A stretch of DNA of 64,000 bases from Candidatus Moranbacteria bacterium RIFOXYB1_FULL_43_19 (GTDB lineage: Bacteria > Patescibacteriota > Minisyncoccia > Moranbacterales > UBA11712). The notes beneath the pieces are model-generated. The model was not told where the DNA came from and made no database searches. It was given only the letters and a program-made list of their open reading frames with translations. Both the position numbers and the translations under genes were made by a program. Location of the stretch: contig MFSH01000023.1 in the NCBI GenBank assembly GCA_001784875.1, positions 33,969 through 97,968 on the forward strand. Reading direction: 5' to 3'. Positions 6,047-23,068 of the stretch are shown one piece after another; position 1 is the first letter of the stretch; the number at the start of each line of letters is the position of its first letter.

Positions 6047-7045
6047 ATGAATAAGCTAAAAAATACCCTCAAAAAATGGAACTCCATATTTTGCAGTGGA
6101 ATGACCTGTAAGTCCAACATCGGGAGGGATATCGTTGTTCTTTTCCTGTTGATTCTGGTTGCTGCAGTTTTTCTCTATTCAACTGTATATACTCCCATGC
6201 AAGCGGAAAGAAAACCGGCAGTCCAAGCGGGAATTTCCGGCGGTCCCGAGAGTGTCGTCCCTCAAAAAGAAACTTCAGCGCCAATCATGTCGGAAGATAA
6301 TATCTCGAAAGAGGTTGAAAACATAATCAACACAATTGATTCGAGCAACTGGAAAAAAACCAACAACCAGTTCTGGGGTTTTTCAGTGAAATATCCCGGC
6401 GGTTGGCTCTCTCCCAAGAGCCAAAGAAAACCTGCCGGCTCCAAGTGGGAAGCCCGCTATCAATTCAGAAAAAAGGATGCCGGCGGAAATCCTTTTCTCG
6501 GTTTTGACGTCGCAGTTTATGACGTTCCGAAAACGAAGGAACTTCGGAATACTGAAGAATATCCGGTTCCAAAAAATGATAAACCTGATGCAAATAGCCA
6601 ATGCCAAAACATCGAAGGCCATGCAATTGAAATCGATGACTTTCCGGCCGAAGAGATATACATTCCCCTTGGCGATGATTGTTATAATGCCGCTTTGTTT
6701 TTCAGTATTGTGAAAGACAGGTATATCTATAACATCGTTCCAGTTCTCGAGGCCGGAGCCGAGCGGGGAACGGATCCCAGATTGGCCGTAAACGATAATT
6801 TCCCTGACTATTATGCCGCGGCTTCCACTTTGGTTCTTATTGACATTGTGAGGCCGAAACCCGCGCCGCCCAAGCCAAAAATCACCGCGCCAAAACCGGT
6901 GTCGTATAAAGTTGTGGGCGGCAGATTGGTCTGCGCCAAGAAAAACGACAAACCAAGAAAAAGCCGGCAGAACAAGGGGAAGCATCTTGATATGGAATGC
7001 TGTCTTGACCCCGACGAATATCCGAATCCCTGGTGCACGTATTAA
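6047..7045 (+). CDS. membrane-anchored secreted protein, paralog family member A with C-terminal C..GKHxDxxCCxDPDExPNPxCxY motif
   Basis: N-terminal TM anchor; shares GFDV.VY, YxxNIVP, FPxYY..STL blocks and the C-terminal Cys motif with ORFs 15217..15807 and 22088..23068. Confidence 0.6.
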   Translation: MNKLKNTLKKWNSIFCSGMTCKSNIGRDIVVLFLLILVAAVFLYSTVYTPMQAERKPAVQAGISGGPESVVPQKETSAPIMSEDNISKEVENIINTIDSSNWKKTNNQFWGFSVKYPGGWLSPKSQRKPAGSKWEARYQFRKKDAGGNPFLGFDVAVYDVPKTKELRNTEEYPVPKNDKPDANSQCQNIEGHAIEIDDFPAEEIYIPLGDDCYNAALFFSIVKDRYIYNIVPVLEAGAERGTDPRLAVNDNFPDYYAAASTLVLIDIVRPKPAPPKPKITAPKPVSYKVVGGRLVCAKKNDKPRKSRQNKGKHLDMECCLDPDEYPNPWCTY

Positions 7046-7139
7046 GTCCAGAATTGCCACGCAAAGCATCACAGGCGGACTTTTTATACTTTCTTCAGCA
7101 GTTGCCTCGATAAGTACATGAAACTTTAGCTAAAAAAAT

Positions 7140-8636
7140 ATGCCAGTTCAAAATTCCAAAGAAAATCGCAAAAAATGCCTTTGCCCGAACTGTCCGAGTT
7201 ACCCGCATGAATGCGACGGAGAAGTTTTATATTGCGCGGAGAAGGTGGGGCATAGCCAGTGCGACGTGAACGCCAAGGGCTGTCTATGCCCCGGATGTCT
7301 GGTTTGGAGTGAGAATAATCTCAAGGAAATATATTATTGCACGCGCGACACAATAGAACTAGCTTCCGCCCGAGGCGGATCCGCCTTTGGCGGAAAAGTT
7401 GTGATGCGGAAAAAAAAGCCGGACGAGAGCAATGAATTTTATCAGACAGTTGCGGACATAAAAACAATAGCCGAAACAGGCGAGAGCATTGAAAGGCCGA
7501 TGGGTTCGCTCAAGAAGCCGGGTTGCGGGTTATCTCTGGATAATCTGCATTTTGTCCCGGCGCAAGTGGCGAAAATTCCGCTCGACAGGGAAGAAAAAGT
7601 GAAAACTGGTGTTATTATCGGTCCGGTTGCAAAAAAACCGCTCAAAGTTTCATCTCCTATTATGATTACGGGAATGTCTTTTGGCGCGACCTCAAAAAAT
7701 GTGCATCTTGTTATTTCTCGCGTTGCGAAGGAACTGAAAATTGCTTTCAACTCTGGTGAAGGAGGCATCCTTGAAGAAGAATACGAATCAAAGAAATATC
7801 TAATCGGCCAATACGCTACCGGACGATTTGGAATCAATGAAGATGTGATCAAAAAAGTGGCGGCGGTTGAAATTCGCTTTGGACAAGGCGCCTATCCCGG
7901 GAAGGGAAGTTATCTGCCGGCCAAGAAAATGAGCGAAGAAGTCGCGAATCTGCGGGGACTGAAAACAGGCGAACCGGCCTATTCTCCCGCGCACCATCAT
8001 GATATGGAAACGCCAGGGGAAATTGCAGAGAAAGTGAAATGGCTCCGCGAACTGACGGGAGGAGTTCCCATCGGCGCGAAAATCGGCTGTGGAAATGTTG
8101 AGGAAGATGTGAAAGTTTTGGCCGAGGCCGGAATTGATTATATCGCCATTGACGGATTTGGCGGGGGAACAGGTGCGACGGACGCCTATGTCAAAGACAA
8201 CGTTGGGATTCCGGTTTGGGCGGCGATTCCAAAAGCTAATCAAACTCTTCAAGAACTGGGAGCGAGGAAAAATGTTACCCTCATCGCCGGAGGAAGCTTG
8301 CGGCTCTCGGCGGATTTTGCGAAGTGTCTCGCGCTAGGAGCGGATGCTGTTTATATCGGTACGGCCGCGCTCATTGCCATAAACTGCCAGCAGTATCGCG
8401 TCTGCCATACGGGACTTTGCCCGACGGGCGTGACTACCCATCGGCCGGAACTCGCTTCGCAGCTCAATGTCGAAGAAGGCGTCCGAAAATTATCAAACTT
8501 TATAAAAATATCAACCGAAGAAATTGCAGAATTCACAAGAATAGTCGGAAAAGATAATATAAATAAATTATCAAGCGAAGATTTAGTTTCAATAAAAAGA
8601 GATTTGGCGGAAATCCTCGGGGTAAAATGGATATAA
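7140..8636 (+). CDS. glutamate synthase domain-2-like FMN-binding protein (archaeal-type GltB family) with N-terminal 8-Cys module
   Basis: GSLRLSADFAKCLALGADAVYIGTAALIAINC..C..TGLCPTG matches GltB FMN/Fe-S domain; N-terminus CLCPNCP..C..C..CLCPGC. Confidence 0.75.
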   Translation: MPVQNSKENRKKCLCPNCPSYPHECDGEVLYCAEKVGHSQCDVNAKGCLCPGCLVWSENNLKEIYYCTRDTIELASARGGSAFGGKVVMRKKKPDESNEFYQTVADIKTIAETGESIERPMGSLKKPGCGLSLDNLHFVPAQVAKIPLDREEKVKTGVIIGPVAKKPLKVSSPIMITGMSFGATSKNVHLVISRVAKELKIAFNSGEGGILEEEYESKKYLIGQYATGRFGINEDVIKKVAAVEIRFGQGAYPGKGSYLPAKKMSEEVANLRGLKTGEPAYSPAHHHDMETPGEIAEKVKWLRELTGGVPIGAKIGCGNVEEDVKVLAEAGIDYIAIDGFGGGTGATDAYVKDNVGIPVWAAIPKANQTLQELGARKNVTLIAGGSLRLSADFAKCLALGADAVYIGTAALIAINCQQYRVCHTGLCPTGVTTHRPELASQLNVEEGVRKLSNFIKISTEEIAEFTRIVGKDNINKLSSEDLVSIKRDLAEILGVKWI

Positions 8637-8642
8637 AAAAAT

Positions 8643-8730
8643 CCACTACTATATATAGTTGTGGTCTTTCTACAAAATAAAAAGCAGGATTTATTATCTT
8701 CCATCCTACTACAACTAGTTGCAGTAGGAT
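8643..8730. repeat. pair of palindromes (CCACTACTATATATAGTTGTGG and ATCCTACTACAACTAGTTGCAGTAGGAT)
   Basis: Same two palindrome types recur at 61866..61925 in reversed order. Confidence 0.55.
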
Positions 8731-8756
8731 TTTATTTATCGCTGACGGAGCAAGTA

Positions 8757-8987
8757 TTATTCCGTTGCTCCCCGGAAGCAAAAATACCCGTCTTCCAAAT
8801 TATATTCCGCGTGGACAGGACAGGCGCCGCAAAGACATCCTTCCTTGGAAAGTTTGCAGGCTGTTTTTCCTTTGGCGCAGTAGAGATTTTCTTCCTTTTC
8901 TTCGGGACAGTTTGATTGGGTGAAAGTCGGACACTTTGGGCAAAAACATTTTTCCGCGTTTTCTTTTGTATTAGGAACTCTTGTCAT
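8757..8987 (-). CDS. standalone small Cys-rich protein paralogous to N-terminus of 7140..8636
   Basis: 76 aa; KEN.(E/K)KC.CP.CP..YCA(E/K)...C....(K/E)GCLC..C aligns residue-by-residue with the GltB-like N-terminal module. Confidence 0.6.
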   Translation of the reverse strand: MTRVPNTKENAEKCFCPKCPTFTQSNCPEEKEENLYCAKGKTACKLSKEGCLCGACPVHAEYNLEDGYFCFRGATE

Positions 8988-9002
8988 ATCTTTTGTGAAA
9001 AC

Positions 9003-9227
9003 CTAGAACCCCAAATAGGCTGAAAGAGCAAAGAGGGCATGGACCAACGCCAAAAAAATTGTCAGTTTCGCCAGTCGGAGATGCCATTTGAAAGGAATTT
9101 TTGTGTTGCCCTTGAAATTCAGATAGCCGATTGTCGCAGTTGAAAAAAGAGAAAGCAAAGCCAGCATCCCCAGATAAGCAACAATAGGCAGACCCAATAT
9201 TAGAGTATAGGCGATTTTTAAGATCAT
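9003..9227 (-). CDS. small 2-TM membrane protein
   Basis: 74-aa hydrophobic ORF immediately downstream of cupredoxin gene on same strand. Confidence 0.4.
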   Translation of the reverse strand: MILKIAYTLILGLPIVAYLGMLALLSLFSTATIGYLNFKGNTKIPFKWHLRLAKLTIFLALVHALFALSAYLGF

Positions 9228-9230
9228 GCT

Positions 9231-9707
9231 TTATTCTACGATCAATTTTCCGACCATTCCTTGCTGGCGATGAGTGGGAACGCTGCAATAATATTCAAAC
9301 GTTCCTATCTTGTCAGCGACGAATTCAATCGAATCGCTCTGGCCGGTTTGAACAACTTTCGTTCTGGCGTTGAATTCTTCTATGACCCAGTCGTGCATTC
9401 CCAGAGTGACAGCCAGATTAATTCTTACTCTATCACCTTTTTTCACTTTTATTTCTTTGATAGAAAATTCAAAGGGTTTGGCGGAGACGTCAAAAGATTT
9501 CACGCTTTGGTTGTCAGCCGAAGATTCTTTTGGAGCGTCAGTTGGAGTGCCCTGAGAGAGAGTTGCGGAATCCTTATTTCCGCCCCGGGAGAAAAGGATT
9601 ATTCCAATGATTGCAGCCGCAACTACTGCAATCCAAACCATCGAATTGCCTTTTGCCGGCATTTCATTTTGGTCTTTTTGCTCCTCGCTTGTTTCTTTTT
9701 CTTCCAT
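9231..9707 (-). CDS. membrane-anchored cupredoxin (blue copper protein, plastocyanin/amicyanin-like)
   Basis: Type-1 Cu ligand pattern H (GMHDW)...C-x2-H-x4-M (YYCSVPTHRQQGM); N-terminal TM anchor. Confidence 0.75.
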   Translation of the reverse strand: MEEKETSEEQKDQNEMPAKGNSMVWIAVVAAAIIGIILFSRGGNKDSATLSQGTPTDAPKESSADNQSVKSFDVSAKPFEFSIKEIKVKKGDRVRINLAVTLGMHDWVIEEFNARTKVVQTGQSDSIEFVADKIGTFEYYCSVPTHRQQGMVGKLIVE

Positions 9708-9779
9708 ATTTTTAGCTTGAATATCATGGGTTATAAATATTGATAAATTTCTGTCCTAATACTAAATAATACCATATAT

Positions 9780-11027
9780 TTGTCAAATTATTTCAGAGTT
9801 GCGGCAACCCTGGCTGGTTTAAATAATAAGCATATGGAAGGGTTTCTCTTGGTCTTGCGTAAATATAGTAATATGGAAGAAGAAAATTCAAAAAATAATT
9901 ATGGAAGAAGATCTGGCGTTTTTGTTTGGATTAAGGCTTTTATAGCGGTCGGAATCATTCTTTTTGCCTATCAATGGATCAACAATGCAGGTTGGGCAAG
10001 CAAAAGCATAATTGACTCCGAGCTCACGCTTGGAATTTCTTTTCTAACTGGGGTAGCAGCTTCCTTTTCAACATGCCTCGCCGTTGTCGGAGGAATGGTC
10101 ATTGCTTTTTCAGAAAAGTACGAATCCCGGGACAAAAATTTTTTTGCCGGAGTGATTCGGCCGAATCTATATTTCCACATTGGCCGACTGATAACCTTTT
10201 TTTTCTTGGGAGGAATTCTGGGCTTCGTCGGAGGAACGCTCAATATCAGCGGAAATTTTGTCTCCATGTACACCATTGTCTTCGCTGTTGTGATGGGCTG
10301 GCTGGGTCTCAATATTTTAGGAATCCTTCCTCCAATTTCGGCGCTCGGCTGGCGGATGCCAAAAAGCCTGACAAGACTTTGGGCAAAAATGGAAAATTCA
10401 GAGCACCAGGCAGCGCCGTTTCTTTTGGGCGGGCTCACTTTTTTTCTACCTTGCGGGTTTACCCAGAGCACCCAAGTTCTGGCTCTGGTTTCGGGAAGTT
10501 TTTTCGCCGGCGCGCTGGGACTTTTACTTTTTGCGCTGGGAACGATGCCGGTTCTCATGGCGGTGGGAGTTGCCACTTCCTGGGCGCGAAACAAAAAATT
10601 CGAAACTTTTCAGAAAGCGGCCGGAATTCTTATTATCTTTTTTGCGATATTTTCATTTCAAGCGGGTCTAGCGCTCAAAAGTGTGAAAAAAAATGTGATT
10701 TCTAATCCGGTTTCAAATTCAGAAAAAACGCAACTCTCCAAAGTCTTGCCAAACAATTTAGCTGAAAACCAAACGGTGGAAATGAGTGTTACGAGTCGCG
10801 GTTTTGAGCCGGGCAGCTTAAAAATAAAAAAAGGCACGCCGGTCCGCTGGATTATCAGGGGGGTTTCCGTCAGTGGTTGCACCAACCAGATTATTATCCC
10901 CAGTCTGGATATTGCTAAAAACATCAGTTCCGGTGAGAATATAATCAGTTTTGTTCCTCCGGACGTACGTGAAATTCCTTTCAGCTGTGGAATGGGAATG
11001 GTACGTGGGAAATTTATTCTTGAATAA
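9780..11027 (+). CDS. CcdA/DsbD-like polytopic membrane protein fused to C-terminal cupredoxin-like domain
   Basis: TM Cys residues ([15 protein letters not shown]) typical of DsbD_2/CcdA-like proteins; C-terminal beta-domain ending [15 protein letters not shown]; true start likely internal (MEGF/MEEEN). Confidence 0.6.
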
Positions 11028-11095
11028 ATTTCCCAAAGTTCAAAGTTCAAGATGAAAAAATAAAAATTTTTGGGTCCCGCTCTTCGGGACAGCTT

Positions 11096-13312
11096 ATGCT
11101 TATGAATCGCAAAAAGACGATGGTAACAATTTCCGGAATGACTTGCGCGAGTTGTGCCGTTTCGAACGAAAAAGAACTCTTGAAAACAAAGGGCATTTTG
11201 GACGCGTCGGTGAATTTCGCGGCCAAAAAGGCCTTTGTCGAATACGACGCGGACGAATTGAGCGAAGATGATGTAAAGAAGGTAATCAAAGACAACGGAT
11301 ACCAAATCGTGGAGCACGAAGAACATAGCATAAAACACAAACACGCCATGGTTATGGAAAACGGCGGTCACGAACATGCCAGCGAAGACATCAAAAATAA
11401 TTGGCAGGCATTTCTTTGGTCGGCCGTTTTTAGCCTGCCGCTTGTTTTGGAAATGGTTTATCAAATCCGGGCTGGTAAAAATATCCTTGGCATTGATCAG
11501 GTGATGTGGCTGCATCTCGTTTTGGCAACGTTTGTTGTTTTATTGTTCGGCTGGAGATTTCACCGAATGGCGTTCATGCAAGCCAAAAAATTTCGGGCCA
11601 ATATGGACACCCTGATATCGCTTGGAACGCTTACGGCTTATTTTTTCAGTTTGTGGGCAATTTTCAACGGGCGGGAGAGTTATCTTGAATCAGCTGCGCT
11701 TATAATCACATTCATTCTTCTCGGTAAATATTTTGAAGCCAAAAGCACGGGACAAGCCGGAGAGGCAATGCGCAAACTCTTGGAGCTGGGAGCAAAAAGA
11801 GCCCGCGTGGTTACGGAGGCCGGAGAAAAAGAAGTGCTCGTCGACGAGATAAAAGTTGGCGATGTGATTGTGGTGAAACCGGGCGAAAAAATTCCACTCG
11901 ACGGAATTGTTCTTGAAGGGGAATCCAACGTGGACGAATCTATGCTCACAGGCGAATCATTGCCGGTAGAAAAGAAAAAATTTTCCTCGATTTTTGGGGC
12001 AACGGTCAATCAGGATGGCGTGCTAAAAATAAAAGTGATGCAGATCGGAGAGCAGACAGTACTGGCGCAGATTATCAAAACCGTTGAGCAAGCACAGAGT
12101 TCGAAAGCTCCCATTCAAAAATTGGCTGACAAGATTTCTGGAATTTTTGTGCCAATTGTGATTGTTCTGGCTGCCATATCTTTCATCGGCTGGTATGGTT
12201 TTTCGGCTGATTTCACAAAAGCTCTGATCAATGCGGTGGCGGTTTTGGTGATTGCCTGTCCCTGCGCTTTGGGCCTTGCGACGCCAGCGGCAATCATGGT
12301 TGGAACGGGAAGGGGTGCGAAGCAAGGAATACTTTTCAAAAACGGGGAAAGCTTCGAAAGGGCAAAAGATATATCGATGATTGTGTTTGACAAAACGGGC
12401 ACGCTGACGAAAGGTCGGCCGGAAGTTGAAAGAGTTTTTGTGAATCCCGGCTTTAATTTCTCGAAGGATAAAATTTTAAAGATAGCGGGGAGCTTGGCGA
12501 AGCATTCCGAACACCCTCTTTCGAAGGCCGTAGCTGATTATATACACAAGAAAAATATTGCCCCAGTGGACATGAAAAATATCAAAGAGGAAAGGGGGAA
12601 AGGAATTTCGGCAGTTTGCGAGGAACACGGAACAAAATTGCTTTTGGGGAATAGAAAACTTTTAGAAGATAACAAAATTGACACAACGTGGGCGCAGGAC
12701 ATTCTGGAATCGGAAGAATTTCAATCTGGAACAAAATTATTTGTTGCGCATGGCAATGAAACCGTGGGCGCGATTGCAGTGGCGGATGAATTGCGAAATG
12801 AAGCGAAAGAAGCTCTGGGCAAGCTGAAAAAGATGGGACTGAAGATTGGAATGATGACAGGCGACAGCAAAAAAACGGCTGAACATATTGCCAAGGCCCT
12901 GGAAATAAAAGATGTCCGAGCTGAAGTTTTGCCCTCGGAGAAGGCGAATGAAATAAAAAGACTTCAGAGTATTGGGGAGAAGGTTGTTTTCGTGGGCGAT
13001 GGGATCAATGACGCGCCGAGCCTTGTTCAGGCTGATCTTGGAATTGCCATGGGATCAGCACAGGATATTGCCAAAGAGGCGGGACAGATTATTCTTGTCC
13101 ACAATAATCTCAAGAAAGTTGTTGAGGCCGTTGCAGTATCCAGGCTTACTTTCAAAACTATCCGCCAGAATCTTTTCTGGGCGTTCGGATATAATGTCGT
13201 TGCTATTCCACTCGCCATGGCCGGGTTCCTGAATCCCATTATTGCGGCGGGAGCTATGGCTTTTTCTTCTGTTTCAGTGGTGTTGAACAGTTTGAGGATT
13301 TATCGGAAATGA
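11096..13312 (+). CDS. copA: copper-translocating P1B-type ATPase
   Basis: N-terminal [17 protein letters not shown] motif ([11 protein letters not shown]), DKTGTLT phosphorylation site, GDGINDAP hinge. Confidence 0.9.
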
Positions 13313-13464
13313 AAAAGCAGGAAAGAAACCTTTTTTTATTTCCGACTTTAGAGATTATTTCGAAAACGTGAACTCCGAACCACGATATTGTTTCCGAAGG
13401 TGCCGGAATTTTGATTTATCTTTAATTTTCAGCGATACGTTATTTTCCGCTCGACTCCCCAAAG

Positions 13465-14544
13465 CTATTGTGGTGCGAGGGTGAAAGTATTGAGCAATGC
13501 TCCGTCCGGCCCATGGGTTTCGACCGTGATAGCTTTCCCGTTCACCTTCACAAGGCCAAAGCGGCCCTGTCCTTGGTTCGCGTATTCGGCGACGCCCGCG
13601 ACGGGAAGGTCATGATTGAAAGAATCAGTATTTCCGAAAACGAACTGATAAACTCCTCCGATTTTCCGGCGGCTGACGATATGTTCATGACCGTTGAAAA
13701 CAGCTTTCACGTTGTGCTTTTCCAAAATTCGCCAAAGAGCGTTGCGCTCCGCGGGATCAAAATCCAAGCTCTCAGTCATTTTCGAGCTTACTGGATAAGC
13801 CGGCTCATGAAAAAAGACGAAAGTATTTTCTTTCTTGGTTGCAGCTAAATCCCTTTCCAGCCAATCTCTTTGGGTACTGTTAATCTTGTGTTCATCTGGC
13901 TTGTCGCTGTCCAGAAATACAAAATGGGAATTCTTGAGATCAAGAGAATAGGCAAATTCAGTGAATCCGCTTGGTCCGTTAATCGGGAAACTGAAGGCAT
14001 CCGCCCAGAATTGGTCACACTCATCCATATTCTCCACCCGGTCATGATTTCCTTGAACGGCGTAGGTTTTCTCTGCCAGCGGACCCAGAATATTTTTCCA
14101 GTTAGCATAATCCCGATTATTGTCACTTTTTCCCTTGCAGTTGCTAACGAGATCCCCAGTAGCGATAACAAGATCGGGATTTTTTTCTTTTATCCGAGCT
14201 ACCGCTTTTTGAAAATTGCCCTTCGAATTTCCGGCAGTGAATCTTTGCGTGTCGCCGAGAATGGCGAAAGTGAAGCCATTATCGCCGAAATTTTCTGCAG
14301 TCTTATTTTTATCTCCAGAAAAAGGATTGGAAACAGCCTCTTCAATTTTCTCAGCTTCTTTCTTGATGTCATCCAGTACATCCGCCAAAACTCCCCGAAA
14401 CGATTTGATCTCGGGTGCGAAAGAATTTCCAGCTAGCTGATCTGAAGTTGGCGTTGTCTTTTTCAGAACAACCAAAAAATACACCAGACCGGCCAGGACA
14501 GCGAGAGCAGCAAAGATGGCAATGCCGACTAAGAATTTTTTCAT
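13465..14544 (-). CDS. membrane-anchored calcineurin-like metallophosphoesterase
   Basis: GDTQ, GDLV, GNHD, HEP, GHEH metallophosphatase motifs in order; N-terminal TM helix. Confidence 0.8.
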   Translation of the reverse strand: MKKFLVGIAIFAALAVLAGLVYFLVVLKKTTPTSDQLAGNSFAPEIKSFRGVLADVLDDIKKEAEKIEEAVSNPFSGDKNKTAENFGDNGFTFAILGDTQRFTAGNSKGNFQKAVARIKEKNPDLVIATGDLVSNCKGKSDNNRDYANWKNILGPLAEKTYAVQGNHDRVENMDECDQFWADAFSFPINGPSGFTEFAYSLDLKNSHFVFLDSDKPDEHKINSTQRDWLERDLAATKKENTFVFFHEPAYPVSSKMTESLDFDPAERNALWRILEKHNVKAVFNGHEHIVSRRKIGGVYQFVFGNTDSFNHDLPVAGVAEYANQGQGRFGLVKVNGKAITVETHGPDGALLNTFTLAPQ

Positions 14545-15061: not shown

Positions 15062-15216
15062 AAGTCACCTCCCTTCGTTATTTTTGTTTTACCTGTTTTT
15101 ATGATACCAGAAAACAAAAAATAGACCAAAAAGAAAAAAATAAACAGCTAAAAGTAGCGCAAATGGTATCTTTCTTGGTATAATTTACAGGAAAGCTACT
15201 CGTATTTTTCAAGGGC

Positions 15217-15807
15217 ATGCTATCCAGGAGACTCAAAAAGATAAATTTGAGCCCATTCCAAAAAGTCAAATGGGAACCGGAAAAGGCGAAAACAACGGCT
15301 TTAGTCTTGCTCGGCGCTTTTGTCTTTGGAGTTTCTTTTTTGGGGAGTGGAAAAATTCTGTTTGATTTCAACCAAAAGGAAAGGCAGAGTATGCTTGGCA
15401 GCCAGCTAGAAGAATATGGCTTTGGAAATGCCCTGGCGGCCGAGAATCAAGAAAACGAAAATATACTCCATTCCGAAGAATTTTTTTTCCCCGAAGAAAG
15501 ACAGGTTTCCGAAGTGATGTCGGAGGCAGCTGGTTCGGTGAAGATTTTAGCCATCAAAAAAGCAAAAGCGGAAGCAGCTGCCAGAAAACTCGCTGCGGAA
15601 AAAGCTTTGAGACGGAGCGCTCCGATTCTTTCAGGATCAACAAAAAAACTTCCCAACGGGCTTCGGGTTTGCACCGGAAACAGCGATCATCCGCAAAGGG
15701 GAGGAGCGACGCACATGGACGAGGACTGTTGTGCCGACTACAATGAAACTCCCAATCCGCGCTGTTACTATAGCCCAGAAAAGATGGGAATTTTAAAGAA
15801 AAAATGA
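15217..15807 (+). CDS. membrane-anchored secreted protein, paralog family member B (shorter) with C-terminal Cys/His motif
   Basis: C-terminus VCTGNSDHPQRGGATHMDEDCCADYNETPNPRCYY matches motif of 6047..7045 and 22088..23068. Confidence 0.55.
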   Translation: MLSRRLKKINLSPFQKVKWEPEKAKTTALVLLGAFVFGVSFLGSGKILFDFNQKERQSMLGSQLEEYGFGNALAAENQENENILHSEEFFFPEERQVSEVMSEAAGSVKILAIKKAKAEAAARKLAAEKALRRSAPILSGSTKKLPNGLRVCTGNSDHPQRGGATHMDEDCCADYNETPNPRCYYSPEKMGILKKK

Positions 15808-15887
15808 GGCAGATAATTATTTATTTTCCACAAAAAGAGAAAGGGCGGATCCGTGCGGATCCGCCCTGTTTAGATGGGAAAAAATAA

Positions 15888-16190
15888 CTAGGAGGGTTGC
15901 CTGATGTTCAGGGTGAGTGGAGAGAAATCGGCCAGTAGGCTTTGCATCTCTATTGGCGTCAGGAAATGCCCGCAATTGTCGATATTGTTGAATCCGAGGA
16001 CGGTAGTTTTGCTTAATCCGTCCCGGCACGGCACGATTTGTCCCACGGTATACGAATGACCGTTTAATTTCACGACGTTGCCCTTGATTCTCAGTTGCGA
16101 GAGTGGCATTCCGCGATTTTCGGGCATCGCGAGAATATTCACTATGCACTTTGGACATGCATAAACTTCATCCTTGGTCTCTCCGGCCAT
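15888..16190 (-). CDS. hypothetical Cys-containing protein (CPKC...C...C)
   Basis: ORF 15888..16310; likely start MAGETKD; no recognisable family. Confidence 0.3.
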   Translation of the reverse strand: MAGETKDEVYACPKCIVNILAMPENRGMPLSQLRIKGNVVKLNGHSYTVGQIVPCRDGLSKTTVLGFNNIDNCGHFLTPIEMQSLLADFSPLTLNIRQPS

Positions 16191-16334
16191 GGCTCCTCCC
16201 AATTTTTTCCCAAAATTATACCAGCTTCGATGAGCTGGACTTTTTTCTGTCTTAATTTTATAAAAAAATAAAACAGATGGCAACACGCTAGAAAATTTAT
16301 GTCTTGACAAAGAACTCCCGGTAGTTTTCGATTT

Positions 16335-16922
16335 TTATTGTCTCTGGCACAACCCAACTAATTCTGTTTGTTCGATGATATGTCCCGCGATTGCTTTTTC
16401 GATATCGGTTTTTTTGGCAGACGAGTTGAATTTCAGCACTTCGTCCAAAGCATACAGCGTAAAGTGATAATGATGAATTCCGGAAGGCGGGCAAGGGCTT
16501 GTCCAACCTATTTTTCCTCCGCTGTTTGTTCCTTCGGTCCCGCTTGGCGGCTTTGAATTTTCTCTTATTTCTTTGAGCGCCGGGCTCATATTGAAAATAA
16601 TCCAATGGGTGAATCCTCCGGGCCCCGGCGCATCAGGGTCATGAGCGATAAGTGCCAGGCTCAAAGTGTCCTTGGGAACTCCCTCAAGCGCCAGCTGGGG
16701 ATTGATACCTTCGCCATCGCAGGTAAATTTCGGCGGAATGCTTCCGTTGTTTTCGAAAGAGGGGCTGGTAATTTTCATATTGCTTGGCTTAGTTGTTATT
16801 TTTTTTTCAAAGGTCACGGGGGAACTTTGGCTGTCTGAAGCTAAAAATTTATTCGTCAGAAACAAAAAGAATCCCGTGGCTGTTATTGCAATGACGAATA
16901 TAAAATATTTCGAAGTATTCAT
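16335..16922 (-). CDS. YbhB/YbcL family PEBP (Raf kinase inhibitor-like) protein, secreted
   Basis: HDPDAP..GFTHWIIFN and C-terminal HHYHFTLYALD PEBP motifs; N-terminal signal/TM. Confidence 0.8.
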   Translation of the reverse strand: MNTSKYFIFVIAITATGFFLFLTNKFLASDSQSSPVTFEKKITTKPSNMKITSPSFENNGSIPPKFTCDGEGINPQLALEGVPKDTLSLALIAHDPDAPGPGGFTHWIIFNMSPALKEIRENSKPPSGTEGTNSGGKIGWTSPCPPSGIHHYHFTLYALDEVLKFNSSAKKTDIEKAIAGHIIEQTELVGLCQRQ

Positions 16923-16970
16923 GGTATAATTATCTTGGATATAGCTTCATTATATTATATCCAATGCATT

Positions 16971-18281
16971 ATGAAAATACTTATTCTTGACAGTGGCGGA
17001 CGTGGAGATGCGCTGGGATGGTGCTTTAAGCGGGATCCAAGAGTGAAAGAAGTTTTCTGCTTGCCTGGAAACGCAGGAATGGAAAAAAATGGCATTATCG
17101 TGAAGCCGGATGTTCGGGCACCGGGAGAAATTGCCCGTTTTGCTCTGGAGAAAAAAATTGATTTGGCCGTCGGTGGATCGGAAGGGATTTTAAGCGCGGG
17201 AATTGTCGATATTTTTGGAAAACATAAAATTCCCATCGTGGGGCCGAGCAAAGTTGCCACAATTTTAGAGGCAAGCAAGGGCTACACGGATATATTGTGC
17301 AGCGAGGTCGGTGTTCCTGTTCCGGAGTTTGAAATTTTTGAAGATCCGGTAAAAGCAAAGGCATATATAAAATCATTGGCGCATGAGGTCGTGGTGAAAT
17401 GCGACGGGCTGGCTGAAGGAAAAGGAGCAATCGTTTGCGATTCTCAAAAAGAAGCAAGTGAGGCAGTGGACCGGGTGCTTGAAATGCAGCGCATTGGGAA
17501 ATGGGGTGGAAAAAGTGTTGTTATCCAAAAAAGGATTTGTGGACGCGAACTTTCCTTTTTCTGTATTACCGACGGCTATACACTTGTTCCGCTTCCGGTT
17601 GCCCAAGACTATAAGCGGGCATTTGACGGTGACCAGGGGAAAAACACCGGCGGCATGGGTTCCTATTCTCCGCATGAATGGGAGGGGGAAAAACTCACCA
17701 AAATCGTGACGGAGAAAATCGCCGCGCCTCTTCTTAAGGGTTTTCGCGATAAACGGAACATAACCTATCGGGGGTTCATATATTTTGGGCTCATTTTTGA
17801 AGATGAGAATATTGAAAAGCCGGTTCTTCTCGAAATAAATGTTCGTCTTGGTGACCCGGAAGCGGAAGTGATTATGCCTCGACTCAAAACGCCGCTTCTT
17901 GATATCTCGCGAGCTCTTCTTGAGAATAAATTGGGCGATTTGAAAATAGAATTCTTGAGCGATTATTTTTGCGACGTGGTTGCGGCTAGTGGCGAAGTGA
18001 AAAGCGCTGGGAAAGGAAAATACCCTGGCTATCCGGGCCGCTATAAGATCGGCTTTCCGATCAGGGGATATTTTGAAAATGATTTCAGATCCCTCACTTT
18101 TTCAGCCGGGATCACGAAAGACGCCGAAGGGAAATATATGACTTCCGGGGGGAGAGTTGCTCATTTGGTCGGATGGGGAGCAACCCTTGAAAATGCGCGA
18201 AAAATGGTTTATGCTGAAATGGAGAAAACAAGTTTTGAAGGGATGCGCTTTCGAAAAGATATTGGTAATTTTTTGAAATAA
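16971..18281 (+). CDS. purD: phosphoribosylamine--glycine ligase
   Basis: MKILILDSGGRGDALGW N-domain, ATP-grasp core, C-terminal GGRV; start taken at MKILIL. Confidence 0.9.
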   Translation: MKILILDSGGRGDALGWCFKRDPRVKEVFCLPGNAGMEKNGIIVKPDVRAPGEIARFALEKKIDLAVGGSEGILSAGIVDIFGKHKIPIVGPSKVATILEASKGYTDILCSEVGVPVPEFEIFEDPVKAKAYIKSLAHEVVVKCDGLAEGKGAIVCDSQKEASEAVDRVLEMQRIGKWGGKSVVIQKRICGRELSFFCITDGYTLVPLPVAQDYKRAFDGDQGKNTGGMGSYSPHEWEGEKLTKIVTEKIAAPLLKGFRDKRNITYRGFIYFGLIFEDENIEKPVLLEINVRLGDPEAEVIMPRLKTPLLDISRALLENKLGDLKIEFLSDYFCDVVAASGEVKSAGKGKYPGYPGRYKIGFPIRGYFENDFRSLTFSAGITKDAEGKYMTSGGRVAHLVGWGATLENARKMVYAEMEKTSFEGMRFRKDIGNFLK

Positions 18282-18302
18282 TCATCAAGTTGTGATCAGG
18301 CA

Positions 18303-19067
18303 ATGAGATTAATTGGCAGATCATTTTTCGGAGGGATGCTAGCTTTTAATATTCTTTTCCTTTCCGGGTGCCTTTTTAAGGACATTCAAAGGCCGGCGGT
18401 TCTTCGGAGTGCCGATGAATACAATGTGAAAGGCTATCAGGATCGCCAGCCGGAGGATCCCGAGGCAGAAAAAAGGCTTTCGGTCAGCGTTTCCGGAGGA
18501 GGCGGCAACGAGCAGTCCCAAGAATCCCAAACAGACCAGGAAAAAAATAGTCTTAATCCTGATCAACCTTCAGCTATGCAAATCGACCAGAACAAAAATT
18601 ATTCAGCTGTTCTCAAAACTGGTCAAGGCGACATTACCATCGATCTCGACGTAAAAAAAACGCCCAAAACAGTCAATAATTTCGTTTCTCTCGCGCGGGA
18701 CGGATTTTACAGCGGTACGATTTTCCACCGGGTCATCAAAGATTTCATGATCCAGGGCGGTGATCCAAGTGGTGACGGAACAGGCGGCCCGGGATATAAA
18801 TTCGACGATGAAAATCTCGAAGGAAAATATACTCGGGGGACAGTGGCGATGGCTAATTCCGGTCCGAACACGAACGGCAGCCAGTTTTTCATCATTCACA
18901 ATGACTATGATCTTCCCAACCAATATGTCATTTTCGGACATGTTTCGAGCGGAATGGACACTGTCGACAAAATTGCAAGCGCGGAAGTGACTACGTCGAG
19001 CTCAATGGAAAGATCCAAACCGGTGAGCCCGGTGAAAATTGATTCGGTGGAAATTTTGGAAAAATAG
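18303..19067 (+). CDS. ppiB: cyclophilin-type peptidyl-prolyl cis-trans isomerase, lipoprotein-like N-terminus
   Basis: FHRVIKDFMIQGGDP, GTVAMANSGPNTNGSQFFI cyclophilin signatures; LSGC lipobox. Confidence 0.85.
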   Translation: MRLIGRSFFGGMLAFNILFLSGCLFKDIQRPAVLRSADEYNVKGYQDRQPEDPEAEKRLSVSVSGGGGNEQSQESQTDQEKNSLNPDQPSAMQIDQNKNYSAVLKTGQGDITIDLDVKKTPKTVNNFVSLARDGFYSGTIFHRVIKDFMIQGGDPSGDGTGGPGYKFDDENLEGKYTRGTVAMANSGPNTNGSQFFIIHNDYDLPNQYVIFGHVSSGMDTVDKIASAEVTTSSSMERSKPVSPVKIDSVEILEK

Positions 19068-19070
19068 CTT

Positions 19071-19091
19071 TTCCAAGACTTAGTCTTGGAA
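19071..19091. repeat. perfect palindromic hairpin element TTCCAAGAC-TTA-GTCTTGGAA (same element found in-frame inside ileS)
   Basis: Intergenic between ppiB(+) and 19158..19496(-); 19-nt identity to 50724..50742. Confidence 0.7.
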
Positions 19092-19157
19092 AAAAATAAG
19101 CCTTCCCGTGGGAAGGCTTCTAAGTTTTTGTGGCGAAATGCAGGCAGAATAGATCCT

Positions 19158-19496
19158 CTAAGATTCTTGCACCTCGATCGCCTCGAGGGGGTAGAGGTGT
19201 TTCCCGTGTGGGTCGGCATATTCGGGCGGCCAGACGAACCGGATTCGCAGAGGCTGCCCGCTTTTGCTTCTGAACAGATCAGCTACGTGAAAGACGGAAT
19301 GCTCGGTAGACTTGCCCGAATCTTTGGGAACATGGTTCCGGACAACCACACTCTCGATGACGAGGATTTTATTGCGAAGGTGCCTGCTTTCGATGCGGAT
19401 TTTGAGCCGTTGCCCAACCGGGATTTTGAGATGGTGCATGAGCTGCACAAAAGCGCTGGGGCCTTCAAAACGTGTCGCTGCTACTTCATTTTTCAT
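19158..19496 (-). CDS. hypothetical protein
   Basis: 112-aa ORF; 23 nt downstream of 19520..19825 on same strand (probable operon); family not recognised. Confidence 0.4.
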   Translation of the reverse strand: MKNEVAATRFEGPSAFVQLMHHLKIPVGQRLKIRIESRHLRNKILVIESVVVRNHVPKDSGKSTEHSVFHVADLFRSKSGQPLRIRFVWPPEYADPHGKHLYPLEAIEVQES

Positions 19497-19519
19497 GCAG
19501 TCTCTCCCTACGGTCGGAC

Positions 19520-19825
19520 TCAGGTTTTGAAATCGACACGCACTTTTTCGGTGCCGAAATTTTCCTTGAAAAGTTCTTCAAAGGCCTCTTTCAAATTTTT
19601 CGGCTCAAATTGAGGGACGGATCCTTTCGGCCATCTTACTTCGCAGAAAACGCCCTCTTTGGAATCCATAAAACGGAGAGGCTGTTGAAATAGAACAATC
19701 ATCTTCTCCGCTTGGAATCCGCATGCCGTGCGAATCAGTTGTTTTATTTGGTTTTTAATAAACTCCGTTGTTTCGGAATTTGTTCCCTCCATGACGCCAA
19801 AGATAAGGCAAACCAGATATTCCAT
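19520..19825 (-). CDS. hypothetical small alpha/beta protein
   Basis: 101-aa ORF; family not recognised. Confidence 0.4.
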   Translation of the reverse strand: MEYLVCLIFGVMEGTNSETTEFIKNQIKQLIRTACGFQAEKMIVLFQQPLRFMDSKEGVFCEVRWPKGSVPQFEPKNLKEAFEELFKENFGTEKVRVDFKT

Positions 19826-19944
19826 AGCCCCTCACCTCCCATTGAGTATTTTTCTTGTTTCCAACCTAGCACGCCCGACGGGAAGAAATCAAGCACGGAG
19901 CCAATTTGATTTTTCCTCCGAAAATCGGTAGGCTAAAGGCAGAA

Positions 19945-20310
19945 ATGAGAAAAATATATTATCGAAAACTCATTCGCGACAAGATTCCTGAAAAAATGAC
20001 ACGGGTCGGAGCAGCGTATGAATCCAGAAAACTTGGAAAGAAAGAATTCGAGAACGAAATCTTGAAAAAAGTCGGGGAAGAGGCGAGTGGTCTTCTTGCA
20101 GCGAAAAATAAAGAAGAAATTATCGAAGAGCTAGCGGATGTTTTGGACGTGGCCGAAGAAATCCGGCGGCATTGGAAAATCAAACCCTCGTGTCTCGCAA
20201 ATATGCAAAAAGAAAACGCCCGCAAAAAAGGAGGTTTCAAGAAAAAAATCTACCTTGTCTGGTCGGAAGACACGGGATACAGGACGAACGAAAGGAAAAA
20301 TTGGAAATAA
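19945..20310 (+). CDS. MazG-like / PRA-PH-like nucleotide pyrophosphohydrolase (all-alpha NTP-PPase)
   Basis: YRKLIRDKIPE...EELADVLDVAEEI pattern typical of MazG/HisE-like NTP pyrophosphatases; start taken at MRKIYY. Confidence 0.55.
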   Translation: MRKIYYRKLIRDKIPEKMTRVGAAYESRKLGKKEFENEILKKVGEEASGLLAAKNKEEIIEELADVLDVAEEIRRHWKIKPSCLANMQKENARKKGGFKKKIYLVWSEDTGYRTNERKNWK

Positions 20311-20348
20311 TTTCGCTACGATATATCGTATTAAGTTAAAGTAAAATT

Positions 20349-21092
20349 ATGAAACTAACTTTTCTCGGGACAAACGGCTGGTATGACAATAAAATTGGAA
20401 ACACTGTGTGCAGCCTATTGGAAAGCGAAAAGTATTATATTATCTTTGATGCTGGAAATGGAATCTACAAACTACCGAGCTACATAAAATCAAAAAAACA
20501 CATTTTTCTCTTTTTGAGCCATTTGCACCTTGATCATATTTTTGGTTTTCATATTTTTCCCAAGTTCAAACTTAAAAATAAATTCAATGTTTTTTGTCCG
20601 AAAGGATTGAAAAAAGATTTGATGAAAATAATCGACCATCCCTACGCCATGCCATTTCGGGAGATGAAGCTGAAAACAAAAATAGAGGAACTGTCAAAAG
20701 ATTGCCGGGAACTTCCTTTTCCCGTCGAATGTCGAAAACTCTATCATATTGATCCATCTTTCGGATATAGGATAACTTTGGACGGCAAAACTGTGGCCTA
20801 TTGTTCCGATACCGGTGTATCAAAAAATTCAATCCAGCTTGCCCGAAACGCTGATGCGCTGATCCATGAATGCGCCGCCGTGCCCAAATTAGTCTCGGGG
20901 AAATGGGGGCACTCCAATCCGGAAGAAGCAGCCGGAATCGCCAAAAAAGCCGAGTGCAAGAAACTTTTTCTGACTCACTTTTCCGCAAATAAATATATGA
21001 CCTTAAAAGACCGCCGGCGGGCTGAGAAAGTAGCGAGGAAAATTTTCAAGAACACTATTGCGGCAAGAGACGGAATGGCCTTAAATGTTTGA
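20349..21092 (+). CDS. MBL-fold metallo-hydrolase (RNase Z/ElaC-like)
   Basis: LSHLHLDHIFG (HxHxDH) motif, downstream Asp/His ligands. Confidence 0.75.
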   Translation: MKLTFLGTNGWYDNKIGNTVCSLLESEKYYIIFDAGNGIYKLPSYIKSKKHIFLFLSHLHLDHIFGFHIFPKFKLKNKFNVFCPKGLKKDLMKIIDHPYAMPFREMKLKTKIEELSKDCRELPFPVECRKLYHIDPSFGYRITLDGKTVAYCSDTGVSKNSIQLARNADALIHECAAVPKLVSGKWGHSNPEEAAGIAKKAECKKLFLTHFSANKYMTLKDRRRAEKVARKIFKNTIAARDGMALNV

Positions 21093-21265
21093 AGTTATCG
21101 AAATTTGACTTATATTTCCTATAAAGTATTATTCTATATAGCCCCAGACCACAAACTTGATTCTGAAAAATATAAGCTCACTTTCGCAAAATAATTTTTG
21201 TGGTGCGGGGCAAGTTGCTGTGGGGAATTCCACAGTTATTTTTTAAGCAATCATTTCAAAAATTT

Positions 21266-21994
21266 ATGGCAAAAGGAAAAAAGAAACCCAAGTATAAGAG
21301 AATACTGCTGAAGCTCTCCGGCGAAGCGATGCGGGGGAAGAGAGAGTTTGGGATTGATCCGGAATTCATTTCCTATCTCGCGTCCGAAATTGTTTCGGCG
21401 CACAAACTGGGTGTCCAGATTGCCGTTGTCACCGGCGGAGGGAATATCTTTCGCGGGGTGGCCGGGTCGAAACGCGGCATGGACGAAGCAACCGCCCACT
21501 ATATGGGAATGCTGGCGACAATTTTCAACGCCATGGCGCTTCAGGACGCTCTCGAGAAAAAAGGGGCGATAGTCAGAATGCAGACAGCCATTGAAATGAA
21601 GCAGATTGCCGAAAATTTCATCCGCAAAAAAGCCATCCGCCATATGGAAAAAGGCCGCATCGTGGTTTTGGGCGGCGGAACGGGCTTGCCTTTCATCACC
21701 ACTGACACCGGCGCGGCTATGCGGGGGCTCGAACTTGGATGCGACGCGGTTTTCAAAGCCACCAAAGTAGACGGGGTCTATTCGGACGATCCGGTCAAAA
21801 ATCCGCAGGCCAAAAAATACGACAAAATTTCTTTCGGGGAGGCTTTCAAAAACGACAAAATAAAAGTGATGGACAAGGCGGCGGTGGAACTTTGCATGCG
21901 GAACGATTTGAAAATAGTCGTATTCAATACCCACAAAAAAGGCGCTCTCGAGAAGGCGCTTCTCGGCGAAAAAGTGGGAACAGTGATTGAATAA
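21266..21994 (+). CDS. pyrH: UMP kinase
   Basis: KRILLKLSGEAM, VVTGGGNIFRG, TDTGAAMR motifs; start taken at MAKGKKK. Confidence 0.9.
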   Translation: MAKGKKKPKYKRILLKLSGEAMRGKREFGIDPEFISYLASEIVSAHKLGVQIAVVTGGGNIFRGVAGSKRGMDEATAHYMGMLATIFNAMALQDALEKKGAIVRMQTAIEMKQIAENFIRKKAIRHMEKGRIVVLGGGTGLPFITTDTGAAMRGLELGCDAVFKATKVDGVYSDDPVKNPQAKKYDKISFGEAFKNDKIKVMDKAAVELCMRNDLKIVVFNTHKKGALEKALLGEKVGTVIE

Positions 21995-22087
21995 TAAAAA
22001 ATACGCCTGCGCAAGTGGGCGTTTTTTTTCGATATGGTATAATATAAAAAAGTAAAAATATAAAAAATAAATTGGGTTTCTACTGGG

Positions 22088-23068
22088 ATGAAAAAAACAG
22101 CGAAAAAACTTTTTCCGAGTTTCCTGAAACGGGAAAATATCACCGCCCTTTCAATGATTGTCGCCATTGGCGGGATTTCTTTTGTTTTGGCTGTTTTTTT
22201 GGTCCAGTTTTCCCGCTACGAAAATCTGAATGAAGCGAGAAAAAAACGTCATTCAGCCTATGAAGACGAATTGCGTCGCCTGTCTGGTCTCTCCGTTAAC
22301 CTCACTCCAGCTCCTGACCCGACTACTGGCTGGAAGACATACAGCAGCCAAAAATATAATATCTCCCTAAGATATCCTCAAAATTGGCAAGCGCCGCGAG
22401 AAAGCTTTGCCGCCAAAGGAGGAAACTATCTTCTCAAAATTTCTTTCGACGAAAAAGGAATCGTGAGCGCAAACGGCGTGAAGGGCTTTGACGTTTTTGT
22501 TTATAGCGCGGCCAAATTTTCTACTCCAGCCGCGACAGACAACCTGAAAAAGAAAAATGAAAATGTTTCGGCGGAAAACTGCCCCGGATTTGATGACATA
22601 ACATTGGGAGAAAAAGGGTATTCGGCCAAAGAAGTGAACATATCTTTTGACAATCCTTGTTGGGAAGAAACTTTTTTCTACAGCCTTTCGAAAAACGGCT
22701 ATACTTTCAATATCGTTCCCCGACAGGGGGGAAGCGCGAACATTTTTGAAGACAGGCAAAAAATAGATATGTTGCGAAACTTTCCCGAGTTCTACGATGT
22801 CGTTTCCACGCTTGATTTTGCAGAAGTTGAGACAAAAGGTATCGCCCAAGCATCCAAAAAAGTTGTCCAGAAAGTTACCGTGGCTCCGAAAGTGAGATAT
22901 ACTTCCGGCGCTTCTTGCGCCCACAAAAAAGACAAACCTCGCTACAGCAAAAACAAAGGCAAACATATGGATGAGGACTGCTGTCCCGATCCAGATGAGT
23001 GGCCGAATCCGCGTTGTGCTTATTCAGCGAAAGGGCTGGCAATAATGATTTCTCCGCCGAAGAAATAA
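22088..23068 (+). CDS. membrane-anchored secreted protein, paralog family member C with C-terminal Cys/His motif
   Basis: C-terminus SCAHKKDKPRYSKNKGKHMDEDCCPDPDEWPNPRCAY; central region homologous to 6047..7045. Confidence 0.6.
   Translation: MKKTAKKLFPSFLKRENITALSMIVAIGGISFVLAVFLVQFSRYENLNEARKKRHSAYEDELRRLSGLSVNLTPAPDPTTGWKTYSSQKYNISLRYPQNWQAPRESFAAKGGNYLLKISFDEKGIVSANGVKGFDVFVYSAAKFSTPAATDNLKKKNENVSAENCPGFDDITLGEKGYSAKEVNISFDNPCWEETFFYSLSKNGYTFNIVPRQGGSANIFEDRQKIDMLRNFPEFYDVVSTLDFAEVETKGIAQASKKVVQKVTVAPKVRYTSGASCAHKKDKPRYSKNKGKHMDEDCCPDPDEWPNPRCAYSAKGLAIMISPPKK

Follow-up and report, generated by a model that had tools for sequence, protein, structure and literature searches.

A 64,000-nucleotide stretch of contig MFSH01000023.1 from Candidatus Moranbacteria bacterium RIFOXYB1_FULL_43_19 (GCA_001784875.1, forward-strand positions 33,969 to 97,968; hereafter the window) encodes three membrane-anchored proteins, designated A, B, and C, that share a C-terminal module of ~45 residues with four cysteines and a histidine (Cys4-His). 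We found that this module defines a family whose named members are almost all labeled Moranbacteria, Parcubacteria, or Patescibacteria, that it is conserved far more strongly than the proteins carrying it, and that genes of the B-type are linked in most genomes to copA, which encodes a Cu(I)-exporting ATPase. We tentatively favor the reading that the module is an extracytoplasmic, membrane-tethered metal site with thiolate and imidazole ligands, most likely for Cu(I); its likeness in function to known copper modules is argued from gene context. The three open reading frames (ORFs) and their parts, including transmembrane (TM) helices, are as follows:

6047..7045 (+), paralog A ("A-type"), 332 amino acids (aa): TM anchor, PsbP-like ectodomain, Pro/Lys linker, and Cys4-His domain
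6131..6187 (+), TM helix of A, residues 29-47, with a Lys-rich flank N-terminal to it (hydropathy scan)
6341..6832 (+), ectodomain of A, ~residues 99-262, with a conserved Cys pair (BLASTP homology to the PsbP/Mog1/DcrB-like domain of C; fold taken from the model of C)
6911..7042 (+), C-terminal domain of A, VCAKKNDKPRKSRQNKGKHLDMECCLDPDEYPNPWCTY (translation, motif scan, and alignments)
15217..15807 (+), paralog B ("B-type"), 196 aa: Lys-rich N-terminus, TM helix, Ala/Lys/Glu-rich spacer, and C-terminal domain
15295..15351 (+), TM helix of B, residues 27-45 (hydropathy; kept across the B-type alignment)
15649..15804 (+), C-terminal domain of B, LPNGLRVCTGNSDHPQRGGATHMDEDCCADYNETPNPRCYYSPEKMGILKKK (motif scan, B-type alignment, and BLASTP)
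22088..23068 (+), paralog C ("C-type"), 326 aa: TM anchor with helical stalk, PsbP-like ectodomain, linker, and C-terminal domain
22148..22216 (+), TM helix of C, residues 21-39 by hydropathy, within a continuous modeled helix of residues 18-65
22322..22822 (+), beta-rich ectodomain of C, residues ~79-245, PsbP/Mog1/DcrB-like fold (model confidence mostly >90)
22895..23065 (+), C-terminal domain of C (alignments, conservation, and a domain-only model)

The ORFs exist exactly as reported in a first-pass annotation of this DNA, which had been made from the sequence alone, and each encodes the N-terminal TM anchor described there, a single hydrophobic helix by hydropathy that follows a Lys/Arg-rich segment. 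A and C align over 237 aa (BLASTP, E = 3e-34, 31% identity) with their internal Cys pairs matched, and all of the internal blocks that the annotation had listed as common to both (GFDV.VY, Y..NIVP, FP.[FY]Y...STL, and the Cys pair) lie within this alignment. B, which has the minimal architecture and represents the copA-associated subfamily, aligns with C (E = 8e-12) and with A (E = 4e-8), but only in the C-terminal ~45 residues. The motif common to all three is C-x13-16-H-x-D-x-x-C-C-x-D-x-x-E-x-P-x-P-x-C-x-Y. The reported four-Cys/His pattern is therefore real, although the first Cys and the His are separated by 16 residues in A, 13 in B, and 15 in C, not 15-17, and only A ends at the final Tyr (...NPWCTY, with no tail). 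B and C continue for another 11-14 residues, comprising a short hydrophobic stretch and then Lys (...YSAKGLAIMISPPKK in C). Regular expressions for H-x-D-x-x-C-C, CC...P-N-P, and P-N-P-x-C-x-[YFW], run over all six frames of the window, matched three sites only, which are the 3' ends of the three ORFs.

A and C are 100% matches to the hypothetical proteins A2359_03445 and A2359_03540, respectively, of Candidatus Moranbacteria bacterium RIFOXYB1_FULL_43_19. The public gene model of B (P0192) has 138 aa, starting at an internal Met (residue 59), and is thus without the Lys-rich N-terminus and the TM helix. The 196-aa ORF is backed by homologs of 186-221 aa that cover 93-100% of the query, and the public model needs correcting.

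Across the family, the module follows the consensus [G-R/K-x-V]-C-x2-3-[ND]-[DH/K]-P-x2-S-x3-5-K-x-H-[MLVI]-D-[EM]-[ED]-C-C-x-D-[PY]-[DN]-E-x-P-x-P-x-C-x-Y, turning from basic in its first half to acidic and Pro-rich in its second. The first Cys, the His, the Asp, the vicinal Cys pair, a further Asp, the Glu, the last Cys, and the Tyr are invariant across subtypes (C277, H293, D295, C298, C299, D301, E304, C310, and Y312 in C). In an alignment of 70 long members, with C as reference (69 homologs), mean identity to C was 92% in the 20-residue core and 75% in the 38-residue domain, compared with 43% in the ectodomain and 31% in the linker. At codons encoding identical residues in A, B, and C, third-codon identity was 0.45-0.54, which is what chance gives at two-fold degenerate codons. 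Selection on the protein thus accounts for the conservation, and gene conversion or a nucleotide-level (DNA or RNA) element can be ruled out as its cause. B and many other members consist of a TM helix, spacer, and module with no ectodomain, and one member carries DUF4012 in its place; hence, the module is the constant functional head of these proteins.

Homolog searches returned 373 proteins for A, 23 for B, and 122 for C. All were without precomputed Pfam domains, and wherever a name was attached it was "hypothetical protein", from metagenome-assembled genomes of Moranbacteria, the Parcubacteria group, or Patescibacteria. The C-terminal module was turned into a 62-position profile (alignment A2) and scored against 1.84 billion cluster representatives (50% identity); 323 clusters matched at E ≤1e-3, 247 of them at E ≤1e-10, with E-values down to 1e-27. 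Among the 150 hits listed, 149 were genuine and matched at the very C-terminus, in proteins of 70-584 aa. A 3,767-aa cadherin/RTX repeat protein that also appeared in this search (P0144) was rejected as a repeat-driven false positive. A scan of one genome per GTDB species yielded 28 family loci, nearly all labeled Moranbacteria or Parcubacteria. Four were labeled otherwise, two as Bdellovibrionales (L011 and L013) and two as Bathyarchaeia (L024 and L030). Because L011 shares neighboring gene families with a Parcubacteria-group locus (L014), and L024 with the window, these two labels are probably due to mis-assignment or mis-binning; L013 and L030 had no neighbor families in common with the labeled loci. 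Several genomes carry at least two members within a few kb, including a tandem pair in L027.

The subtypes are clearly separable in alignments, and at least two exist beyond the three represented in the window, whose signatures are:

C-type: KGKHMDEDCCPDPDEWP[NK]PxCxY, then S..GLALMLKGPxKKK
A-type: KH[LM]DMECCLDPDEYPNPxCxY, with or without ..KYGKYL(K)
B-type: HxDEDCCADYNE[TY]PNPRCYY.P..M.ILK

The tail after the module differs by subtype (KYGKYL, GLALMLKGPKKK, or MGILKKK) and is missing in A and in ~7% of A-type proteins. Each of A, B, and C has full-length orthologs in many genomes at 41-80% identity. The three are old paralogs, each with its own orthologs, and synonymous sites between the copies are saturated. 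The local expansion that the first-pass annotation had read from three copies in 17 kb is thus not borne out. Subtype-specific orthologs, the conserved synteny of C-type genes, and the copA linkage of B-type genes rule out both a recent expansion and pseudogenes.

Searches for a known counterpart were largely negative. For A and B, there was no Pfam match even at E ≤10, and for C there were only sub-threshold matches in the N-terminal and ectodomain region; none of the three matched NCBIfam, PHROGs, or PADLOC. In the PDB, the module had no match by fold, and by sequence profile only a marginal one to maize kiwellin 6ti2_E (E = 0.044), which has the CC-x10-C pattern in common and lacks the His. 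The pattern shared with the Cys-rich N-terminal region of this kiwellin/ripening-related protein is C-x6-P-x2-S-x7-D-x-D-CC-x-D-x4-P-x3-C. Comparison with known copper modules (HMA MxCxxC, cupredoxin, CopC, CopL/DUF1541, CopG/DUF411, PCuAC, and Sco) gave no Pfam match and no signature match to C-x13-16-H-x-D-x2-CC-x10-C. Likewise, with regard to zinc-binding anti-sigma (ZAS) proteins and zinc ribbons, the module has no CxxC or HxxxCxxC and gave no fold match. The motif strings of the module retrieved no paper from the full-text literature, and a keyword search combining Patescibacteria with conserved cysteine retrieved nothing relevant. With no match in these databases, and with named members nearly all from Moranbacteria, Parcubacteria, or Patescibacteria, the earlier description of an unnamed, lineage-specific family is upheld. 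Judged by these sequence and fold comparisons, the module and its family are new and unnamed, while a small Cys/His module on a tethered ectoprotein is in itself a known kind of thing.

The predicted topology places the module outside the cell. Exactly one TM helix was found in 342 of 350 TM-bearing members, with the hydrophobic segment at the N-terminus. The N-terminal flank of this helix was more positive than the C-terminal flank in 231 members versus 72, and the N-termini of B-type proteins contain long Lys runs, with up to ~15 Lys/Arg before the helix; this positive bias and these Lys runs predict an N-in, C-out orientation. No lipobox (L-x-x-C) occurs in the N-termini of A, B, or C, which have a hydrophobic helix of 19-23 residues instead. 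The three are predicted to be membrane-tethered ectoproteins and not released ones, as the term exoprotein in the first-pass annotation would imply.

Structure models are in keeping with this layout. In an AlphaFold2 (AF2) model of full-length C, built with 70 homologs, residues 18-65 form a long helix comprising the TM segment and a stalk, followed by a confident beta-rich domain (~80-245). The predicted local distance difference test score (pLDDT) falls below 50 for most of the linker and the C-terminal module; for the module, such a value would be expected of a fold that requires a ligand. A domain-only model from 49 sequences reached a pLDDT of 73.8 (core, ~83) and is irregular, with a few beta-bridges and one short helix. 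The modeled ectodomain of C is an alpha/beta sandwich superimposable on PsbP-family structures, with PsbP_2 Pfam matches below the gathering score of 27 bits (13.9 bits and E = 0.057 for C; 19.4 bits for the homolog P0207). Folds of the PsbP/DcrB/LpqN type are typical of secreted or periplasmic proteins. PsbP, Mog1p, DcrB, and LpqN proteins resemble A and C in the ectodomain only, and none has a C-terminal Cys4-His module.

The link to copper comes from the genomic neighborhood of B-type genes. In the window, the following cop genes lie between A and B:

9231..9707 (-), membrane-anchored plastocyanin/azurin-type cupredoxin (Pfam Copper-bind and Cupredoxin_1)
9780..11027 (+), DsbD_2 (CcdA-like) membrane protein fused to a C-terminal cupredoxin-like domain, SGC...SCGMGM (Pfam and hydropathy)
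11096..13312 (+), copA, Cu(I) P1B-type ATPase with an N-terminal GMTCASC and a membrane CPC motif (translation and context)

Genes of the B-type and of a related "D-type" of ~200 aa lie directly downstream of copA, on the same strand and with gaps of ~40-290 bp, in 15 of the 21 contexts that could be read (L026, L028, L029, L033, L034, P0383 contig, P0374 contig, L035, L036, L039, L041, L042, L043, L048, and L049). In another three (the window, L038, and L040, with a gap of 0.8 kb), the B-type gene is found within a few kb of copA. Upstream, copA is usually preceded by an [HMA-]DsbD_2-cupredoxin gene and often by csoR, and the downstream neighbor of the B-type gene varies between a lipoprotein cyclophilin peptidyl-prolyl isomerase (PPIase) and PBP/purD. 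The first-pass annotation had suggested a small Zn- or Cu-binding knot. Because B-type genes are linked to copA in most genomes, this idea gains indirect support and stands as the best reading, with metal binding itself putative. The DsbD_2-cupredoxin protein has seven hydrophobic segments, so its cupredoxin-like Cys/Met domain should face outward; with such a domain carried on a DsbD_2 thiol-reductant conduit, extracytoplasmic thiol chemistry is part of the cop locus. Its orthologs in L034 (3510..4883) and L028 (1038..2450) carry an extra N-terminal HMA domain, and the resulting HMA-DsbD_2-cupredoxin looks like an unusual three-part copper/thiol protein. The cop cluster is flanked by A and B in the window, where A lies 2.2 kb upstream of the cupredoxin gene, and stands beside a C-type gene instead in L010.

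Based on these observations, we propose that A, B, and C are single-pass membrane proteins of type II (N-in, C-out), in which the module would sit at the tip of a flexible spacer and be displayed on the outer face of the cytoplasmic membrane. A metal ion may be ligated there by the vicinal Cys pair together with the His, the outer Cys pair, or both. Alternatively, the outer Cys pair might form a clamp disulfide, as in Cox17-type sites. The B-type protein, reduced to TM helix, spacer, and module, could, while tethered to the membrane, accept or sequester the Cu(I) that CopA expels, a role that would be analogous to that of CopL in staphylococci or CusF in Escherichia coli, and it might be kept reduced by the neighboring DsbD_2-cupredoxin protein. 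In the long A- and C-types, the module would be borne by a PsbP/DcrB-like ectodomain and serve other tasks in the envelope. We hold this combined scheme, in which HxDxxCC is an undescribed, Moranbacteria-specific metal-binding fold with a B-type Cu(I) acceptor for CopA, a DsbD_2-cupredoxin reductant, and reuse on PsbP-like proteins in A and C, slightly more tentatively than the metal site as such.

Comparison with known systems offers precedents for parts of this scheme. In Cox17, an adjacent Cys pair binds Cu(I), and the other Cys residues form structural disulfides. Like the module, Cox17 is small and has at least four Cys, including a vicinal pair; it is, however, a eukaryotic, soluble, helical CHCH protein (twin Cx9C), whereas the module has neither a helical hairpin nor sequence similarity to it. 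Cox17 has been named as a Cu donor to Sco1 (PMC7558416). CopL (DUF1541; copBL/copXL in Staphylococcus aureus and YdhK in Bacillus subtilis) is a lipoprotein of the cell surface whose gene neighbors that of a Cu ATPase, and it has been proposed to bind extracellular copper and prevent its re-uptake (PMC10233261). CopL and the B-type proteins are both membrane-tethered proteins of monoderms, and their genes occupy the same position relative to that of the copper-exporting P1B ATPase, but CopL is a lipoprotein with DUF1541, whereas A, B, and C are TM-anchored, have no DUF1541 match, and carry the Cys4-His motif. CopG, in which a CxCC motif holds a tetranuclear Cu cluster, resembles the module in being extracytoplasmic, linked to copA or cus, and equipped with adjacent cysteines (PMC7558416). 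It differs in having a thioredoxin-like fold of ~120 aa with CxCC and two Met, while the module is irregular, has ~45 residues arranged as C...H-x-D-x-x-CC...C, and gave no match by fold or sequence. CupA of Streptococcus pneumoniae is a membrane-anchored Cu chaperone of the cop operon that works with CopA (PMC7558416) and shares with the B-type an N-terminal TM anchor and a small Cys-containing domain. The CupA domain is, however, a cupredoxin facing the cytoplasm, whereas the module is predicted to lie outside and is not a cupredoxin; the CxMxM cupredoxin-like domain of the locus resides on the DsbD_2 protein.

Within the module, the invariant C, H, D, CC, D, E, and C are classical metal ligands. 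Nonetheless, several points weigh against a Cu(I) site. Asp and Glu are hard ligands, atypical for Cu(I), and four Cys in an extracytoplasmic mini-domain equally resemble a two-disulfide knot. The residue after the His is variable (M/L/V/I/R/T/Q) and hence is not a Met ligand. In 3 of the 21 B-type contexts (P0384 contig, L046, and L050), no cop cluster is nearby, and the adjacency of copA and B elsewhere may derive from one ancestral arrangement. In the window itself, two minus-strand genes (Metallophos and DUF5684) separate copA from B, which therefore must have its own promoter here; the arrangement in L038 is alike. Moreover, C-type genes are located among pyrimidine genes, in the conserved order pyrH - C - Vut_1 - pyrE, and the contexts of A-type genes are variable (L031 and L032 share nothing) and unrelated to metals. 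We detected no conserved partner genes for the A-type, and the neighbors of other subtypes were housekeeping or unrelated envelope genes.

The main rival explanation is that the module is a structural mini-domain locked by two disulfides, which would pin the C-termini of ectoproteins to an invariant self component and bind no metal. The partner could be a wall polymer such as peptidoglycan, a protein of an S-layer or pilus, or a membrane component common to these ectoproteins. We consider this explanation somewhat less likely than the metal site, and several features are consistent with it. The module is extracytoplasmic with an even number of Cys (four), and the ectodomain holds a further conserved Cys pair. 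Its place is always the extreme C-terminus, behind a flexible Pro/Lys/Ala linker and on unrelated ectodomains, including DUF4012, and a surface that contacts an unchanging partner would be expected to show such extreme conservation. For anionic wall polymers, binding sites could be provided by the basic first half and the Lys-rich tail. Moranbacteria genome L032 encodes a homolog of the disulfide-forming enzyme VKOR (11240..11626, 2 kb from an A-type gene on a 922-kb contig); no homolog was found in the 64-kb window, a stretch too short to be informative on this point. The marginal match to kiwellin falls in a disulfide-rich region. Docking through disulfides would, however, leave the invariant His, Asp, and Glu and the copA linkage of the B-type unexplained, no partner gene is conserved beside A- or C-type genes, and the kiwellin similarity is without a fold match.

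A redox-active site is improbable by comparison, although it overlaps with the metal-site reading that we favor. The CC pair and the outer pair would switch back and forth between dithiol and disulfide states, making the module a small thiol-disulfide or Cu(I)/Cu(II) oxidoreductase, for which CopG offers a precedent (PMC7558416), fed by the DsbD_2 protein. The CC pair does stand beside a His and acidic residues, and the DsbD_2 reductant conduit is encoded in the same cluster as B in most genomes. Against this, the module has no thioredoxin-like fold or CxxC, its model is irregular and matches no oxidoreductase, and A- and C-type genes are not linked to DsbD_2.

Two further readings conflict with the architecture and predicted topology of the family. 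The first, also raised in the first-pass annotation, is that of a C-terminal sorting or processing signal, a tag cleaved or modified by a dedicated enzyme, as in LPXTG/sortase, PEP-CTERM/exosortase, or a thioether maturase like those of ribosomally synthesized and post-translationally modified peptides. Occurrence at the extreme C-terminus of several different proteins per genome is the hallmark by which such tags were discovered, and in the C-type tail a few hydrophobic residues precede Lys residues. The hydrophobic stretch, however, spans only ~5-6 residues and there is no C-terminal TM helix; the single helix is N-terminal, so the proteins are already anchored, and they lack the layout of LPXTG, PEP-CTERM, GlyGly-CTERM, and PGF-CTERM signals, in which a signature motif precedes a C-terminal TM helix and a basic cluster. 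Given also that tails are absent or differ between subtypes, that no NCBIfam sorting-domain model matched, and that the gene contexts read contained no adjacent sortase-like gene and no consistently adjacent radical-SAM gene or other conserved processing enzyme, we regard a sorting signal as very improbable and do not retain the suggestion. Even more doubtful is a cytoplasmic zinc knuckle, in which an N-out, C-in topology would tether a Cys3His or Cys4 Zn finger to the inner face of the membrane. The Cys4-His composition is typical of Zn fingers, and CupA provides an example of an N-terminally anchored metal-binding domain facing the cytoplasm (PMC7558416). Nonetheless, the positive-inside rule favors N-in, most strikingly for the Lys/Arg-rich B-type; the PsbP/DcrB-like fold with its conserved Cys pair would also have to be cytoplasmic; and the module has no CxxC pairs and no zinc-finger fold match. 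Finally, neither a known domain nor decay into pseudogene fragments of one ancestral gene, which the first-pass annotation had named as grounds for abandoning its family, was found, and the idea of decaying fragments or chance similarity retains practically no probability, as the ORFs are intact and under purifying selection, the ortholog identities and profile E-values are those given above, no point in its favor was found, and chance resemblance among the three copies is excluded by the profile search.

Several other features of these loci were observed. A strong palindromic, GC-rich hairpin (15842..15867, 11-bp stem with 8 GC pairs) lies 35 nt 3' of the B stop codon. The minus strand has a T-run here, and the hairpin may act as a terminator, possibly in both directions. 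The cyclophilin-type PPIase, with the lipobox LSGC, is encoded in the window at 18303..19067, 2.5 kb downstream of B, and is found directly 3' of B-type genes in many genomes (e.g., L028 5389..6141 and L034 8010..8759). There it could be co-transcribed with the B-type gene, which is of note because four prolines of the module are invariant or nearly so. The C stop codon and the start of Vut_1, a queuosine-precursor-type transporter, are 3 nt apart (23068/23072); this gap and the conserved gene order suggest that C is co-transcribed with nucleotide-salvage genes. The Cys-rich DUF2769 occurs twice near A, once fused N-terminally to a glutamate-synthase-like FMN domain (7140..8636, +) and once as a free-standing 76-aa ORF (8757..8987, -) just downstream of it on the opposite strand. 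A second unannotated, N-terminally anchored Cys-rich family (c8), encoded in the window at 33833..35029 (-; 398 aa), recurs beside Cys4-His members in L011, L014, L023, and L024. In a further cluster (c58; L020 6192..6914 and L027), an anchored protein encoded directly 3' of a family member ends in a different Cys-rich tail (...CYISTNGQPNLNRPPYFCPYENNEDCYYR).

Unannotated envelope proteins dominate the genomes of Patescibacteria, or candidate phyla radiation (CPR) bacteria, in which new hypothetical families turn up commonly. This family stands apart in that the module is under far stronger constraint than its carrier proteins, occurs in several copies per genome, and has a testable genomic link to copper efflux. 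To our knowledge, very little has been reported on metal handling and surface organization in tiny monoderm CPR cells. The module merits a Pfam or NCBIfam entry whether it proves to be a Cu(I) site or a docking knot. A docking function would make it the marker of a conserved system for attachment in the Moranbacteria envelope. Cu(I) binding, which we tentatively favor, would instead add a new fold to the few known extracytoplasmic copper modules (CusF, CopC, CopL, CopG, and PCuAC) and annotate several hundred protein clusters at once. Should the B-type protein in addition be the acceptor for CopA, it would represent a novel way for an ultra-small monoderm to deal with copper after efflux.

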